A DNA stretch of 64,000 nt from Opitutia bacterium (GTDB taxonomy: Bacteria; Verrucomicrobiota; Verrucomicrobiia; Opitutales; T3Sed10-336): NCBI GenBank assembly GCA_050506795.1, contig JBJHCF010000009.1, positions 32,001 to 96,000 of the forward strand. Reading direction: 5' to 3'. Under the pieces are notes generated by a model. It was not told the origin of the DNA. It did not search any database and worked only from the letters and a program-made list of their open reading frames with translations. A program made the translations under genes and the position numbers. Below, in pieces: positions 2,874 to 15,711 of the stretch. Position 1 is the stretch's first letter, and the number at the start of each line of letters is the position of its first letter.

Positions 2874-2976
2874 GCCAGGGAACAGCCGAGCCGGAAGCGA
2901 AACCACCGATGCGTCGGGTGAATAATTGACTTGGCGGCCTTCAGGGATTTCACTCGTTGCCGAAGAAGGTAATCCC

Positions 2977-5900
2977 ATGTTTGAAAAACGATTCCGCATA
3001 ACCCCGTGCCTGCTGCTGCTCGCAGGGGCCGTGTCTCCGTTATTCGCCGGTTCCCTCGCCTGGACGTGGCATCAGCCGCTGCCGCAGGGGAATTCACTCA
3101 CCACGCTGGCAGCGGGGGATGATTTTCTCATCGCCGCGGGATTACAGGGAACCGTTCTACGTTCCGAGAACGGCGAGAACTGGGAGCACATCGACACGGG
3201 CCCGGACGAAACGTTCTTTTCGTCCGCCTACGGCGACGGTCGCATTCTGCTGGGCGGCAACGGGGTGATCCTTTCCACTCAGGACGGCATTACCTGGACC
3301 GAAGTACTCGACACGGACGGCGTCATCGTGCAGGGCATCGCCTACGGCGAGGGAACCTGGGTGGCCGTCGGACGGTACTTTAACCAGGAGGAATCAAGAA
3401 CCGACAGCACGGTTTTCCGTTCCTTCGACGGTGTTGAATGGGAGCGACATGACTTCGAAGCGGGAGAGAACTTTTTCGTCCGTGACGTCGCCTTCGGCGC
3501 CGGCGACCGATTCGTGCTGACCGGCAGTCCGCCGGGTGCGTTGAGCAGCAGCGTGCTCGTATCCACGAACTCCGGCCAATCCTGGACACCGGCAAACGAT
3601 CCCCTTGAGTTCGCGGGTCAGTCGTTGACCTGGAACGGAGCAAACTTCGCCGTCGCGGGCGCCAACGGCGGCGTGGCCTTTTCGAGCGATGGGTTGCAGT
3701 GGGAAACGCGAAACGCGGACAGCCCGATGGCGTTGCGCCATATTCTTTACGCGGACGGACTCTGGGTGGCGGCCGGGCTCTCGTTTCAAGGAAACCGGGA
3801 ACCGGGGCTTCTCTATTCGACCGACGGAGTCGAGTGGGAAGAAACAGTTCTGCCCTATGCCAACAGCACCCCAACCGCGATCCTCCATTTCGCCGGCCAG
3901 TTCCTGACGGTCGGCCTCGATGGCGCCACCCTCAAAGGGAATCACCCGGAGAACCTGCAACCGGTCGCCAATGGCCTTCGCCGCCCCCTGAGCGGCATTG
4001 CCCACAACGGCGCCAGGTATGTCGCGGTCGGCGGACCGCCCCCACCGGAAACGCGCTTTTCCACCAATCCGATTCCCGGCAACACCATTGGAGGCGAGCA
4101 GACCATCCTCACATCCACGGACCTCCAGACCTGGACCGCGCTTGAAACCGCCAGTGACGAGCCCCTTTTCAGCATCACCTACGGCAATGGACGTTTCGTG
4201 GCGGTGGGAAACAACGGCACGGTCCTGACCTCGGACGACGGACTGGAATGGACCGCGCGCGATTCCGGCACCGAAAGCAACCTCACGGGCGTGGCTTACG
4301 GCAACGGATATTTTGTGGCGGTGGGACGCAACCTCTCCTATATCGGTATTTCCCCTGACGGCATTAACTGGACGGAACCCGACCATGTCCCGGCCATCAC
4401 CGAAGGTTTGTCCGATGTTGTTTTCGCCGACGGACGTTTTGTTGCGGTCGGATCAACGAGGGACGGCGTATTGCATACGACGAACCCTTTGTCCTGGGAG
4501 CGCGTCTCGGGCTCGTTCGACGAGGCAATCCTGCTATCGGTAACGCACGGGGCCAACGGTTTTGTCGCCGCCGGGTTCACTTCCATTTCCTCAAACGCTC
4601 CGTTCGTCCTGTCCTCCCAAAACGGGATCGACTGGACACAGGAAACGATTGAGGGCGCTCTCCCGATTACCGCCGTCACCGCTACGCCGGACGGTTACCT
4701 CGCCGCGGCCAGCTTTTTCGATTTCAGTTTCGGAAACACCGCGTTCCATACTTCGACGGACGGCCAGGTGTGGACTGAAGTCCCCGCATTCCCGCGTCCC
4801 CGGTTGATCTGGGACTTCGTGGTCACCGGCGACGGCGCCGTGGGAGTCGGCGACGGAGGCTCCATCGTGTCCACCTCCTTCACCGATCCCATCATTGAAC
4901 AACACCCCCAATCCCTTTCAGCCTTTTCGGGTGAAACCGTCGAGTTTACCGTGGCCGCAAGTGATCCCCTTGGCGGCGAGCTTGCCTACCAGTGGCTCTT
5001 TGAAGGAGACGCGATCGTATCCGATACCCGCATCAGCGGAACCGAATCAAACACGTTGCGTATCGAAAATGTCCATCCGGACGACGCGGGAGAGTACCGG
5101 GTGGTGGTCGGCAACGCGCAGGGAACGGTCACCAGCCAGGCAGCTTTGCTCACGGTGCAGGCCCTGCTCCGGGTCAGCCTCGATTTCGACGAAAACACGC
5201 CGGGATGGGGGGTCACGCGTTTTGACTCCGTACAGGAAGCGATCGACGCCGCACCGGCGGACGAGGCCTCCACCCTTGTGGTCGAACCGGGCGTCTATTT
5301 CGAAAATCTTCGCCTCCACGGCAAGCCCATCACCTTAACCGGCACCGACCCGCGGAATGCGGAGATCGTGGCTTCGACCGTTCTCGACGGCTCGGCGCAG
5401 GCGGACAGCGTGATTGCCATCATTGACGGTGAGGACAACCGCACCCGGATCCGCGGATTCACCATCCGAAACGGAACTCCTTCCGGGTTCAACCTTCGCG
5501 GCGGAGGGATTCGCATCGAGCATAGCACCCCCGTTATCGAGGACAACCGCATCCTGACGAACGCCGGCGGCGACGGGAGCGCAGGGGGCGGTATCTTCGC
5601 CATGGGCACCAATCTCCCCGACTCCGAATTCCTAATCATTCGCCGAAACGAAATCCGGGACAATACCGCCGAAATCGGCGGTGGCATTTTCCTGGTTCAC
5701 CGGTACGTAAAAGTATCTGAGAACCTGATACTCGACAACAGCGCCTACCATGAAGGAGGGGGGATATTCGCCGCCGAAATCCAAGCCGGACGCGGTTACC
5801 TCACCCAAACCGCGATTTTTGTCGAGCACTGCGTCCTGCACGGCAACCGGGCGGCCAACAACCCCGCGGCCGTCCTGCAACGGTTTGGCGAGAGTGATTT

Positions 5901-7053
5901 CGTTAATAACATCGTCGCCGAAAACCGGGCGATCGCCGCTCTTGACCCCTTGGCGCGTCCCTACGGAGCCTATCAGACCGTGATGACCGAAGGCAACTTC
6001 AGCGTGCGCTACAACAATTTCTGGCAAAACGCAGTGGAAGATCGCGGCGCGGAAAACCTTCCCTTTGGCCAGGACGGAAACATCGCCTTTTCCCCCTTGT
6101 TCGCCGACCCGGAGAATTTTAATTTCCGGCTGCGTTCGCAAGCCGGGCGCTGGGATCCAGCGATTGAGGATTGGATCATCGACGTCGAACACAGCCCGCT
6201 CATCGCCGCCGGAGCGCCGAACACCGACGGTTCCCGGCCCAACCTGGGAGCCTACGGGCTTTCCGAAACCGCCAGTCTGGCGCCGGAACAGAGCGTCGTC
6301 TCGATCGCCGCGGTCTCCCCCGGCGACCTGGCCCGGTCGCAGGAGTTGCCTTTGCAGGTGGTGCTGGGACGAACGGGCTCCCTGGACGAGGCGCTTGCAT
6401 TCGAGTTGAGCGCCGGCGGCGACGCCGAAGCGGGAATTGATTTCACCGAGGAAACTCTCCCTGCCGGATTCTCACCCGGCCAGGCCGCACTGACGTTTGA
6501 AATCGCGCCTCTGCCGATCGAATCCGTACGCGGGCATCGCCAACGCATTTATTCACTTGAACCTTCCGAAGCCTTCCTGCCGGGAAATGAGAACACCGCC
6601 ATCATCAACCTCTGGGATCACCCCTACCATGACTGGGTGGCGACGCACTTCTCGCCCGGCGAATGGGAAGACCCGCAACGGGTCGGACCCGAGGCCACGC
6701 CCGGCCAGACCGGATTGACCAACCTCCACCGGGCAGCCTTTGCCATCGGGTTAGAGCCATCACAGAGGGATCGGCTGCCACAGGTGTCCGAGGTCGGGGA
6801 ATCCGTTGGAGAAGACGCCATCAGAAAGATTCGTATCCAGTTCACCCGTCCGGCCCCCCACAACGGTTTCGAATACTCGCTCGAAGCCGCCGAGTCCCTC
6901 CCCCATTGGAGCCCGGCCGAACCGCTGACGGTTACCGTGGAACCGCTGGAAGCGGAGAACGCGGAACGCGTCACCTGGGAGTACGAAAGCTCCAGCCAGT
7001 CTTTTTTCCGAATCCGCACTCGATCGACGGGAAACCTGTACCTGTTTCCATAG
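2977..7053 (+). CDS. Large secreted mosaic protein: BNR/beta-propeller repeats, Ig-like domain, parallel beta-helix, Calx-beta-like domain, C-terminal FFRIR domain
   Basis: ATG 2977 follows a GAAGG RBS and starts a signal peptide (MFEKRFRITPCLLLLAGAVSPLFA). Many S-x-D-G-x-x-W and YGNGRFVAVG repeats; Ig motifs YQW and DAGEYRVVV; PGVYFENL and GGGI beta-helix repeats; degenerate W..HF..GLTNL motif before the terminal domain. Confidence 0.8.
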   Translation: MFEKRFRITPCLLLLAGAVSPLFAGSLAWTWHQPLPQGNSLTTLAAGDDFLIAAGLQGTVLRSENGENWEHIDTGPDETFFSSAYGDGRILLGGNGVILSTQDGITWTEVLDTDGVIVQGIAYGEGTWVAVGRYFNQEESRTDSTVFRSFDGVEWERHDFEAGENFFVRDVAFGAGDRFVLTGSPPGALSSSVLVSTNSGQSWTPANDPLEFAGQSLTWNGANFAVAGANGGVAFSSDGLQWETRNADSPMALRHILYADGLWVAAGLSFQGNREPGLLYSTDGVEWEETVLPYANSTPTAILHFAGQFLTVGLDGATLKGNHPENLQPVANGLRRPLSGIAHNGARYVAVGGPPPPETRFSTNPIPGNTIGGEQTILTSTDLQTWTALETASDEPLFSITYGNGRFVAVGNNGTVLTSDDGLEWTARDSGTESNLTGVAYGNGYFVAVGRNLSYIGISPDGINWTEPDHVPAITEGLSDVVFADGRFVAVGSTRDGVLHTTNPLSWERVSGSFDEAILLSVTHGANGFVAAGFTSISSNAPFVLSSQNGIDWTQETIEGALPITAVTATPDGYLAAASFFDFSFGNTAFHTSTDGQVWTEVPAFPRPRLIWDFVVTGDGAVGVGDGGSIVSTSFTDPIIEQHPQSLSAFSGETVEFTVAASDPLGGELAYQWLFEGDAIVSDTRISGTESNTLRIENVHPDDAGEYRVVVGNAQGTVTSQAALLTVQALLRVSLDFDENTPGWGVTRFDSVQEAIDAAPADEASTLVVEPGVYFENLRLHGKPITLTGTDPRNAEIVASTVLDGSAQADSVIAIIDGEDNRTRIRGFTIRNGTPSGFNLRGGGIRIEHSTPVIEDNRILTNAGGDGSAGGGIFAMGTNLPDSEFLIIRRNEIRDNTAEIGGGIFLVHRYVKVSENLILDNSAYHEGGGIFAAEIQAGRGYLTQTAIFVEHCVLHGNRAANNPAAVLQRFGESDFVNNIVAENRAIAALDPLARPYGAYQTVMTEGNFSVRYNNFWQNAVEDRGAENLPFGQDGNIAFSPLFADPENFNFRLRSQAGRWDPAIEDWIIDVEHSPLIAAGAPNTDGSRPNLGAYGLSETASLAPEQSVVSIAAVSPGDLARSQELPLQVVLGRTGSLDEALAFELSAGGDAEAGIDFTEETLPAGFSPGQAALTFEIAPLPIESVRGHRQRIYSLEPSEAFLPGNENTAIINLWDHPYHDWVATHFSPGEWEDPQRVGPEATPGQTGLTNLHRAAFAIGLEPSQRDRLPQVSEVGESVGEDAIRKIRIQFTRPAPHNGFEYSLEAAESLPHWSPAEPLTVTVEPLEAENAERVTWEYESSSQSFFRIRTRSTGNLYLFP

Positions 7054-9196: not shown

Positions 9197-9757
9197 ATGC
9201 GATACAATACACCCACTATAATCACGGTACTCTTCGCCTTTGTTTTTGGCTCGATCGCGCCAGCGATCGCGGCTTACGACGCGTTTCTCAAAATCGAAGG
9301 TGTGGAGGGCGAATCAGCCGACAAAGATCACGGAGGATGGATCGATATCGAATCGTTTTCCTGGGGAATGAACCACCCCGCCTCCACCAGTGGTGGCGGC
9401 GGAGCCGGCAAAGCCAATTTCATGGAACTCGACCTGGGCAAACATCTCGACAAGGCCACGCCGCTGCTGATGCTCAGGAGCGCGGAGGGTCGACACATTC
9501 CGGAAGCGCACCTGGTTCTCCGCAAGCAGGGGGAATCCGGTCACGTTTTCTTCGAGATTGAATTGAAGAATGTGTTTGTCACCAGTGTCGGCATTCAAGG
9601 CGAGGCCGGCGACACGGTGCCCAGCGAAACCCTTTCGCTCAACTACGAGGAGATTAAAATCACCTACACGCCACAACGCGCGGATGGTGGCCCCGAGGAA
9701 CCGGTTTCCGCCGGATGGAACGTGGCGGAGAACCGGCGGGTTGATACCGATTCATGA
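9197..9757 (+). CDS. hcp: Hcp (T6SS tube protein fold) with N-terminal signal peptide
   Basis: AYDAFLKIEGVEGES..DHGGWIDIESFSWG, KHLDKATPLL, FEIELKNVFVTSV, ETLSLNYEEIKITY and GWN are canonical Hcp1 motifs. They are preceded by a 25-aa hydrophobic leader ending A-I-A. Confidence 0.9.
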   Translation: MRYNTPTIITVLFAFVFGSIAPAIAAYDAFLKIEGVEGESADKDHGGWIDIESFSWGMNHPASTSGGGGAGKANFMELDLGKHLDKATPLLMLRSAEGRHIPEAHLVLRKQGESGHVFFEIELKNVFVTSVGIQGEAGDTVPSETLSLNYEEIKITYTPQRADGGPEEPVSAGWNVAENRRVDTDS

Positions 9758-10581
9758 ACGAAAAGGCCATGCGCTGGCAATTACTGCTGCCGACCGTATT
9801 CGCGCTGTGGCTGACGTGCTTGAGCGCGCCGGCGGCGTACGACGCCTTTCTCAAAATCGACGGCATTGACGGCGGATCGGAAGTCGACGGCCGCGAGGGA
9901 TGGATTGACCTGTTTTCGGTTGCCCAGGGAATGAGCCGATCCATGAGCCTCGTTGCCAGGGACGGCGCTTCCAAACCGGAATTTGACGAGTTATGGCTCG
10001 CAAAACCGGTGGACAAAGCCACTCCACTGCTGATCGAGGCCTGCGCCGCAGGTAAACATTATCCCGAAGCCATACTCGATCTTGTCCGCGCGGATTCCGC
10101 CGCCACCCGTTTCTTCCGGGTACGGCTGGAAGACGTTTTTATCTCCCGGACGGAGATTCAGGGAAACGCATCCGATGGCCACACCCTGGAAAGCATCGGG
10201 CTGACCTATGGCTACCTGGAATGGTCCTATGTGGAATTCGATCTCACGGGCCAGGAAGTCGCGGAGCACCTGGCCTACTGGAATCTCCTGGAGAACCTGG
10301 GCGGCAGCTCGGTCATTCCCGCAAACGGCGGCAGTCCCACCGATCCGCATGATGGGTTCCGCCGCGGGGTCGCCTTTAACCTGTCGGGCCAGACCGGCGC
10401 CGGCACTTTGAGCTGGACCAGCGAAAGCGGCAAAACCTACGGAATCTACTACAGCCCCGACCTGAACGAACCGTTCGACACATTGGTGAAGACCGTACCC
10501 TCCGAAGGCGATGACACCACCTCCACAACGGTCGATCTGGTCGGCAGCCGGGGATTCTTCATCATTCGGGAAATCGATTAA
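9754..10581 (+). CDS. Second Hcp-domain protein with signal peptide and extra C-terminal domain
   Basis: AYDAFLKIDGIDG, GWID, KPVDKATPLL, RLEDVFIS, ESIGLTYGYLEWSY and YWN. Leader ends A-P-A; an extension of about 80 aa ends GFFIIREID. ATGA overlap with the upstream hcp. Confidence 0.85.
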   Translation: MNEKAMRWQLLLPTVFALWLTCLSAPAAYDAFLKIDGIDGGSEVDGREGWIDLFSVAQGMSRSMSLVARDGASKPEFDELWLAKPVDKATPLLIEACAAGKHYPEAILDLVRADSAATRFFRVRLEDVFISRTEIQGNASDGHTLESIGLTYGYLEWSYVEFDLTGQEVAEHLAYWNLLENLGGSSVIPANGGSPTDPHDGFRRGVAFNLSGQTGAGTLSWTSESGKTYGIYYSPDLNEPFDTLVKTVPSEGDDTTSTTVDLVGSRGFFIIREID

Positions 10582-15138: not shown

Positions 15139-15711
15139 ATGAGAACCAAGCCTTCTTTCTTCCTTCGCACCCTGATCGCGGTTTCCCTGTTCTCGGGAAG
15201 CAGCCTGCTTTCGGCCGACATACCCGACCAGCAGATAAACGGTCCGGACGACAACGGTCCCGTATTCACCGCCAAGGGACGATCCGAGCTCGGCTTTCAT
15301 GCGAGTTATTCCATTCTCGATCCGGACGGTCAGAGCAGCGTGGATATTCTCAGCGGACACCTGGATTTTTCCTATTTCATCCTGGATAATTGGGCGCTCC
15401 GGCCACAGTACCAGGTCATCCGCTACGACAACGGCACTTCGCTCACCGCGCACGTGCTGGGATTGGGGGTCGATTTCCACATTCCCCATGAGAACATCGC
15501 CTTCTATTTCGGCGGCGCTCCCAGTGTCGGTTTTGTCAGCGCGGATGATTCGGACAGCGACACGGAGTTCCTGATGGAGCTCCGCGGCGGAATTAAACAC
15601 TACCTGTCCCAACGCCTGGCGCTGAACACACAAATCTCCTACTCGTTCGGCAGCGATTACTCGCTGACCCGGGCCACCATGGGATTATCCGTACTGTTCG
15701 GAGGAAACTAA
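15139..15711 (+). CDS. Outer-membrane beta-barrel protein
   Basis: Signal peptide, alternating amphipathic strands and a C-terminal GLSVLF. Confidence 0.7.
   Translation: MRTKPSFFLRTLIAVSLFSGSSLLSADIPDQQINGPDDNGPVFTAKGRSELGFHASYSILDPDGQSSVDILSGHLDFSYFILDNWALRPQYQVIRYDNGTSLTAHVLGLGVDFHIPHENIAFYFGGAPSVGFVSADDSDSDTEFLMELRGGIKHYLSQRLALNTQISYSFGSDYSLTRATMGLSVLFGGN

Follow-up and report, generated by a model that had tools for sequence, protein, structure and literature searches.

The closest described relatives of the tandem genes reported here are the Hcp (TssD) proteins of the T6SS (PF05638, TIGR03344, 1Y12), which the two products resemble in sequence, in fold, in a predicted helix-against-sheet interface and, for the first of them (Hcp-1), in the GES..H and GGGGAGK motifs. 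Unlike T6SS Hcp, however, both products have signal peptides, the second (Hcp-2) is an obligatory-looking partner with an exoprotein tail, and the genome is without sheath, baseplate, spike and PAAR. The layout of Hcp-ET proteins, an Hcp core with a C-terminal extension beside a bare Hcp, is also alike; in the portion of their description that was available (PMC10433429), these are leaderless, T6SS-delivered and toxin-ended, whereas the extension of Hcp-2 is an Fn3-like tail, the pair has no conserved third (immunity-like) gene beside it, and there is no T6SS for delivery. Fusions of Hcp to PEP-CTERM, such as P0131, are likewise exported Hcps with a C-terminal sorting tag, but the tag of Hcp-2 is a folded β-sandwich without a membrane helix; in the accessible part of one phylogenetic study, PEP-CTERM-bearing Hcp genes were removed from the tree and not studied (PMC8262886). 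The T9SS cargo of Bacteroidota offers an analogy only, namely a signal peptide plus a small terminal β-sandwich common to many unrelated exoproteins: Por_Secre_tail/PF18962, TIGR04183 and TIGR04131 matched none of 37 tails at E 0.1, no T9SS CTD stood among the 50 best VIA fold rows (an outcome that does not speak for another fold), and a SprA profile search of the genome gave no match, with a control that likewise matched nowhere. Finally, Sec-exported pili and filaments rely on chaperones, ushers or proteases and on subunits that are Ig-like or strand-donating. They resemble our locus in that coupled genes encode two exported subunits, a bare major one and a tagged minor one; they differ in that our subunit has the fold of a phage tail tube, with no assembly gene linked to it.

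In the open full-text literature (subscription papers and supplements lie outside it), we found no description of signal-peptide Hcps, of six-domain Hcp chains or of the tail; one study places Hcp-domain proteins in a granule secretome, with leaders not stated in the section covered (10.1101/2024.11.06.622250). The pair described below is real and conserved, and it is not a T6SS; its fold is familiar while its location and architecture are new, and should its rings turn out to form a surface tube, it would amount to a novel kind of system.

Both genes lie on the forward strand of a 64,000-nucleotide stretch of an Opitutia bacterium contig (hereafter the window). The taxa of the nearest Atlas clusters likewise point to Verrucomicrobiota. 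The Hcp-1 gene (9197..9757, +; 186 aa) encodes a signal peptide and a bare Hcp domain, putatively the bulk ring subunit, and the Hcp-2 gene (9754..10581, +; 275 aa) encodes a leader, a diverged Hcp domain, a linker and a C-terminal domain, putatively the tagged subunit. They share an ATGA stop/start overlap (9754..9757, +) that points to translational coupling, and ATGA, GTGA or TGATG junctions were counted by eye in 6/22 pairs (the window plus L140, L146, L150, L151 and L153). PF05638 matched both over their full length and above its cut-off of 23.5 (Hcp-1, 117.1 bits, E 8e-34; Hcp-2, 96.7 bits, E 2e-27), TIGR03344 of NCBIfam scored slightly below its cut-off of 58.9 in both (56.6 and 51.3), and sequence comparison aligned P. 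aeruginosa Hcp1 (1y12) with Hcp-1 from residue 26 on (E 5e-37). The predicted model of Hcp-2 (pLDDT 89.7) has the Hcp β-barrel fold, matching 1y12, 8yun and 4tv4 at E ~1e-12 (Foldseek to 1y12, E 1.4e-12, rmsd 2.1 Å). Coordinates, profile scores and predicted fold thus agree with the initial annotation, which had seen two Hcp-fold ORFs joined by an ATGA overlap among metabolic genes; the flanks are indeed a Zn-dehydrogenase and an SDR upstream and a β-eliminating lyase downstream. A promoter scan returned 0 promoters, together with 4 terminator-like sites vs. 2.1 expected, none of them 3' of the pair. Alignment with 1y12 places the GGGGAGK motif of Hcp-1 (9392..9412, +) in what by homology would be the β2-β3 (L2,3) loop, a loop tied to ring stacking in the part of PMC4650826 consulted. 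In Hcp-2, a Gly/Pro-rich, flexible linker (10309..10359, +; low pLDDT at mature residues 167-174) precedes the C-terminal domain, and relatives carry TSP3-like, Ig or cadherin repeats inserted at this position.

We then considered export. The Hcp-1 leader (9197..9271, +; 25 aa) is Sec/SPI-like, with a basic n-region, a hydrophobic core and A-I-A, where cleavage would be expected; the Hcp-2 leader (9754..9834, +) spans 27 aa, or 22 aa from a second Met, and ends in A-P-A. The leaders end in APAIA and LSAPA, respectively, each immediately before AYDAFLKI, and reach 9-mer hydropathies of 3.1 and 2.41. By our own heuristic (a 9-residue hydropathy mean ≥2.0), 43/44 leaders of the 22 pairs are hydrophobic, so that the leaders are not a matter of chance, and A, G or S directly precedes the aligned core in 34/44. 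A hydrophobic leader was also counted by eye in 36 of 119 further listed Hcp-1 homologues. The canonical initiator Met position is a GCG (Ala) codon in both genes; from its start to its core Hcp-1 has no in-frame ATG, GTG or TTG, and Hcp-2 has a single in-frame TTG, located five codons ahead of its core, which is absent from the 86%-identical homologue P0122. Downstream leaderless starts were rejected as an explanation: an ATG within 4 codons of the core occurs in just 2/44 proteins, both within longer leaders. A lipoprotein signal in Hcp-2 was also rejected, as its Cys is preceded by W-L-T, which is no lipobox by the consensus as we take it to be, and P0115 is without Cys at that position. 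Compared with a same-genus genome, dN/dS was ~0.17 for the Hcp-1 core, ~0.21 for the Hcp-2 core, ~0.20 for the tail and ~0.44 for the Hcp-1 leader; purifying selection acts on both cores and on the tail. Judging from the sequences, the leaders probably mediate Sec export and are cleaved. The proposal that the A-x-A leaders before AYDAFLKI serve a Sec-type route independent of the T6SS is therefore strengthened by leaders that are conserved, by a canonical start that is without Met and by the absence of the machine, and we hold with high confidence that both are exported, and without the help of a T6SS.

That absence, reported at first for the 64 kb, extends by whole-genome profile search to the entire assembly (97.8% complete), in which the only Hcp matches, with the Pfam profile and with our own HMM, are these two. 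TssC, TssB, TssE/gp25, TssF, VgrG, PAAR and phage sheath gave none in the whole assembly, with positive controls that matched (for the TssB/TssC sheath, 0 matches against a matching E. coli control); nor did the assembly match VgrG TIGR03361 or the eCIS, tailocin and prophage tail profiles PF04984, PF17482 and PF04965. The gp19-like tube profile PF06841 matched over 23 residues only, below its cut-off, and a VgrG-like PF04717 match was rejected as weak (24/75 positions), lying inside an exported, tail-bearing protein of 1213 aa. This protein (G000:C20:47724-51362; L031, L185) also holds the 23-residue gp19/eCIS-tube-like stretch (PF06841 positions 46-68); the two stretches may come from a fragment of the tube fold or be fortuitous. 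Five secretins encoded in the genome provide ways through the outer membrane, but none is linked to the pair.

The same division between leader and machine was seen in other genomes, in line with the suggestion that a survey of signal-peptide Hcp homologues and their neighborhoods would be informative: the pair recurs, and the leader state follows TssC. In a sample of relatives, Hcp was found in 14/61 genomes, with the tandem pair in 9/11 other members of the family (the two without it are 92% and 82% complete) and TssC in 0/14 of the Hcp-positive genomes. In a phylum sample, Hcp was found in 30/401 genomes, of which 28 were newly tested for TssC and 17 were positive; the best-scoring Hcp of each genome was leaderless in 17/17 TssC-positive and leader-bearing in 11/11 TssC-negative genomes, counts that are tallies and not tests, because kin are not independent, and that rest on that one Hcp per genome. 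Among named genomes (completeness not given), TssC was present in 0/8 with a leader-bearing Hcp vs. 4/5 leaderless controls; it was also present in a planctomycete with a six-domain Hcp (completeness not given). An exported-type Hcp and TssC occur together in two genomes, G136 and G450. In G136, a T6SS is accompanied by a leader-bearing Hcp elsewhere, of a different type, beside a tail-bearing non-Hcp partner; this second type of leader-bearing Hcp, of which G136 is one host, follows a signal- and tail-bearing partner without a Pfam Hcp match at L158:8130-9830 and L159:8126-9625 (-). Among 24 genomes with leader-bearing Hcps, sheath-type matches occurred in 2 and gp25 in 1, on other contigs; sheath and gp25 genes share one contig at G059:C122:17117-23106, as an eCIS or prophage apart from the Hcp pair. 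Exported Hcps also occur as single genes (L049, L059, L014), and leaderless Hcps were seen in actinobacteria (L121, Thermoleophilaceae; L085, L110, L116, L122), one of which was checked and had no TssC match.

To compare the two copies we analyzed 22 Hcp+Hcp pairs, leaving out the singles L014, L041, L049 and L059, the fragments L015 and L022, an extra solo copy (L025), L158 and L159, and the divergent archaeal pair L067. Gene order was constant over the 22 pairs, with the bare copy first and the extended copy second, and the first copy was nearer to 16 leaderless Hcps in 21/22. The β2-β3 loop of the second copy was shorter than that of the first in 19 pairs, equal in 3 and longer in 0 (median length 18 in first copies, 12 in second copies and 19 in leaderless Hcps). 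The window's own loops measure 17 vs. 17, Hcp-2 losing just the GGGGAG motif, so it is the trend of the family, and not the window's Hcp-2, that hints at a cap role for the second copy. Of the proposed split into a major Hcp-1 and a minor Hcp-2, two parts therefore stand, in that Hcp-1 is the plainer copy (21/22 pairs) and Hcp-2 the tagged one; a cap is hinted at by the family trend only. In the tree, Hcp-1 and Hcp-2 of the family separate into two clades, both of them supported (SH-aLRT 95 and 98) and both drawn from one set of six genomes; several other pairs cluster within their own genome in this same quick tree, which has long branches. A conserved third gene was sought and rejected: there is none over 22 neighborhoods of 9-17 kb, and the next commonest cluster, found in 5 loci, is absent from the window.

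A mixed hetero-hexamer, one of the assemblies that the initial annotation had listed for modeling, was compatible with complex prediction. We modeled four mature Hcp-1 and two Hcp-2 cores, and each Hcp-2 was placed between neighboring subunits, with a predicted interface of a helix (residues 59-73) against strands 130-149. The 4+2 ring scored 0.75 vs. 0.00 for the best control (contact agreement between runs at least 88%, partner pLDDT at least 84); the pass mark was reached by 116/157 solved complexes and by 2/215 mismatched pairs. As Hcp hexamers have already been solved, this prediction speaks for compatibility and is not proof of mixing; the pass may only reflect likeness to those hexamers, and the model is one that cannot separate mixed rings from two homo-rings.

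The C-terminal domain of Hcp-2 (10360..10578, +) is predicted to be six-stranded and Fn3-like (iterated HMM; model pLDDT 89.7). An earlier HMM from 12 mixed seeds matched just 3 ORFs and was superseded by one with decoys, which was seeded with nine Hcp-2 tails and iterated against the 110 C-terminal residues of 10,377 ORFs. This profile converged at ~110 matches, with decoy matches in 0/10,377 reversed and 3/2,094 internal sequences, and at E <1e-3 found 108 proteins that terminate in the domain (median 1122 aa); 95/108 have a hydrophobic leader vs. 560/1532 other long ORFs, by a crude test on raw ORFs. It recovered 11/17 Hcp-2 proteins, six of them non-seeds, and of the six that it missed, five show this pattern in alignment. 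The fold has a middling likeness to fibronectin III domains (best VIA Z 7.3); Foldseek with the tail alone returned nothing at E ≤0.001, no Pfam or NCBIfam family was common to more than 3 of 37 tail members, and the NCBIfam MiiA motif was rejected as its identity (1/37 tails, 0 in the genome). The tail occurs in 13/14 genomes with a leader-bearing Hcp (9-68 matches) vs. 3/11 with leaderless Hcps only, by a profile that includes tails from seven of them, and also in 10/18 Hcp-negative genomes; one genome with a leader-bearing Hcp (G015) has zero tail domains. We reasoned that the tail could be a sorting or docking tag and, since it occurs without Hcp, that Hcp-2 seems to use the tail system as a client without being indispensable to it. 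Within the window, an exported protein of 1375 aa (2926-7053, +) ends in the same domain and carries an Ig domain, a NosD-like β-helix and, by eye, β-propeller-like repeats; it is not kept beside the pair in the 22 neighborhoods. Also in the window (15139-15711, +) is a signal-bearing protein of 190 aa with an aromatic terminal strand, like a small outer-membrane β-barrel, and with no Pfam or NCBIfam match.

We therefore favor, at roughly 55%, an exported surface Hcp ring or short tube scaffold in which Hcp-2 is the tagged subunit. Sec would carry both proteins across the inner membrane, their leaders would be removed, and they would then fold and assemble into six-membered rings, which are predicted to be mixed. 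Hcp-1, which retains the ring-stacking loop, would be the bulk subunit; the tail of Hcp-2 would route or dock the assembly at the cell surface, as it may for ~100 other tagged exoproteins, and untagged Hcp-1 would be carried along with Hcp-2. It counts against this reading that a ring of ~8 nm would also have to get through the outer membrane. Judged by the partner domains, the product could be a non-contractile surface ring or short stack, acting as a structural or adhesive scaffold.

Longer homologues bear on how far this scaffold reading can be taken. A search for them gave 64 proteins, of which 19 contain precisely six Hcp domains; 16 of these 19 begin with a motif of the planctomycete-extracellular type (PF07595, weak in one). 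With a profile of 19 Hcp-2 proteins searched against 1.84 billion representatives, the best 150 matches comprised 64 single-domain proteins, of which 63 have the tail and 57 also a leader (features for which the profile selects), and 86 multi-Hcp chains (50 with six domains, 35 with two to five and 1 with seven). In 19 six-domain chains that we picked by hand, RTX repeats exceeded the cut-off in 8, and Ig-like, cadherin-like or SdrD-type stalks were present in 18; the RTX route terminates outside the outer membrane, according to the part of PMC3034196 consulted. We take it that each six-domain chain may make up a whole ring with a single export tag, which lends indirect support to a hexameric ring. 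Several chains are leaderless (P0209, P0214, P0220, P0221, P0230, P0231, P0246, P0267, P0273, P0274 and P0326), with six Hcp domains, then Ig or cadherin repeats and mostly RTX/serralysin-type ends, and are candidate type I-secreted single-chain rings. P0158 (1438 aa), which has eight Hcp-like stretches and a hydrophobic segment at its N-terminus, departs from the six-domain limit, and in P0168-P0183, P0185 and P0187, one of them labeled Chloroflexota, a leaderless Hcp is joined to a C-terminal domain of ~220 aa without a precomputed Pfam match. Passengers of exported Hcps are Ig, cadherin, PKD, TSP3 and collagen stalks, and no toxin families were found among the 38 proteins scanned. Other exported Hcps bear PEP-CTERM (P0131) or a twin-arginine-like leader (L077, a haloarchaeon), and two Nitrosopumilaceae loci share a common C-terminal segment, with L095 a tandem pair of a bare and an extended copy. 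A single origin of the exported Hcps was rejected (AU p 0.0016 for one clade; 26 vs. 16 rows, 42 of 98, a subset picked after the first tree), making repeated origin or repeated domain replacement likely. A bolder version of the scaffold reading, to which we give tentative credence at most, is that the phage-tail-tube fold has repeatedly left injection machines and builds a novel class of non-contractile surface tube, put together outside the cytoplasm without baseplate, spike or sheath, a tagged Hcp-2 ring nucleating or anchoring the Hcp-1 tube and licensing its export, and that other lineages reach one tag per ring via six domains and an RTX or planctomycete signal.

The same chains can be read another way, as single exported rings that capture and do not stack, with a 40 Å lumen that would bind peptides, nutrients or, as a decoy, incoming Hcp-type effectors, and with stalks and tags that merely position the ring. 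The limit of six domains per chain marks the ring as the conserved unit, the layouts of ring, stalk and RTX resemble adhesins with a ligand-binding head, the rejection of one clade (AU p 0.0016) fits a simple, easily re-acquired activity, and the inner face of Hcp binds and stabilizes small effectors, as stated in the available part of PMC10433429. We nonetheless find capture without a tube doubtful, as the Gly-rich stacking loop is retained in Hcp-1 (median 18 vs. 19 in leaderless Hcps) and, by eye, in most domains of the six-domain chains.

Sec alone leads to the periplasm, and the pair is found in tail-rich genomes (the 13/14 vs. 3/11 above), as would be expected of a periplasmic ring or conduit that serves as a spacer, as a scaffold or as part of the route by which tail-tagged proteins are exported. 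The tail does not depend on the pair, however, given the 10/18 Hcp-negative genomes that have it; no secretin, ATPase or channel gene accompanies the pair, the architecture recurs in archaea and with RTX tags, and we regard a periplasmic site of action as unlikely. That the genes are orphan tube genes of a T6SS or eCIS, or remnants in decay whose starts were mis-called, is highly improbable and largely refuted: orphan hcp islands are known (from the part of PMC10433429 consulted), the assembly is a draft, sheath, gp25 or spike-type matches lie on other contigs of the pair-bearing G059, G008 and G003, and G136 and G450 hold both an exported-type Hcp and TssC, but the canonical start is without a Met codon, leaders are conserved across classes, selection is purifying, and TssC is absent in 14/14 relatives, 11/11 further phylum genomes and 8/8 named genomes with a leader-bearing Hcp.

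Returning to the exported scaffold, the finding matters in practice, since Hcp serves as a T6SS marker in genome annotation and in secretomes, and exported Hcp genes are annotated as T6SS effectors though their genomes are without the machine. Hcp-2 is a 27-kDa tail carrier, among the smallest of its genome, and hence a convenient reporter. The pair opens the testable questions of how Hcp rings assemble and stack without a baseplate and of what role the uncatalogued C-terminal domain of Verrucomicrobiota plays. If the reading is true, the tube fold would have a second widespread role, as an exported ring, in bacteria and archaea, reached repeatedly and by at least five export routes.
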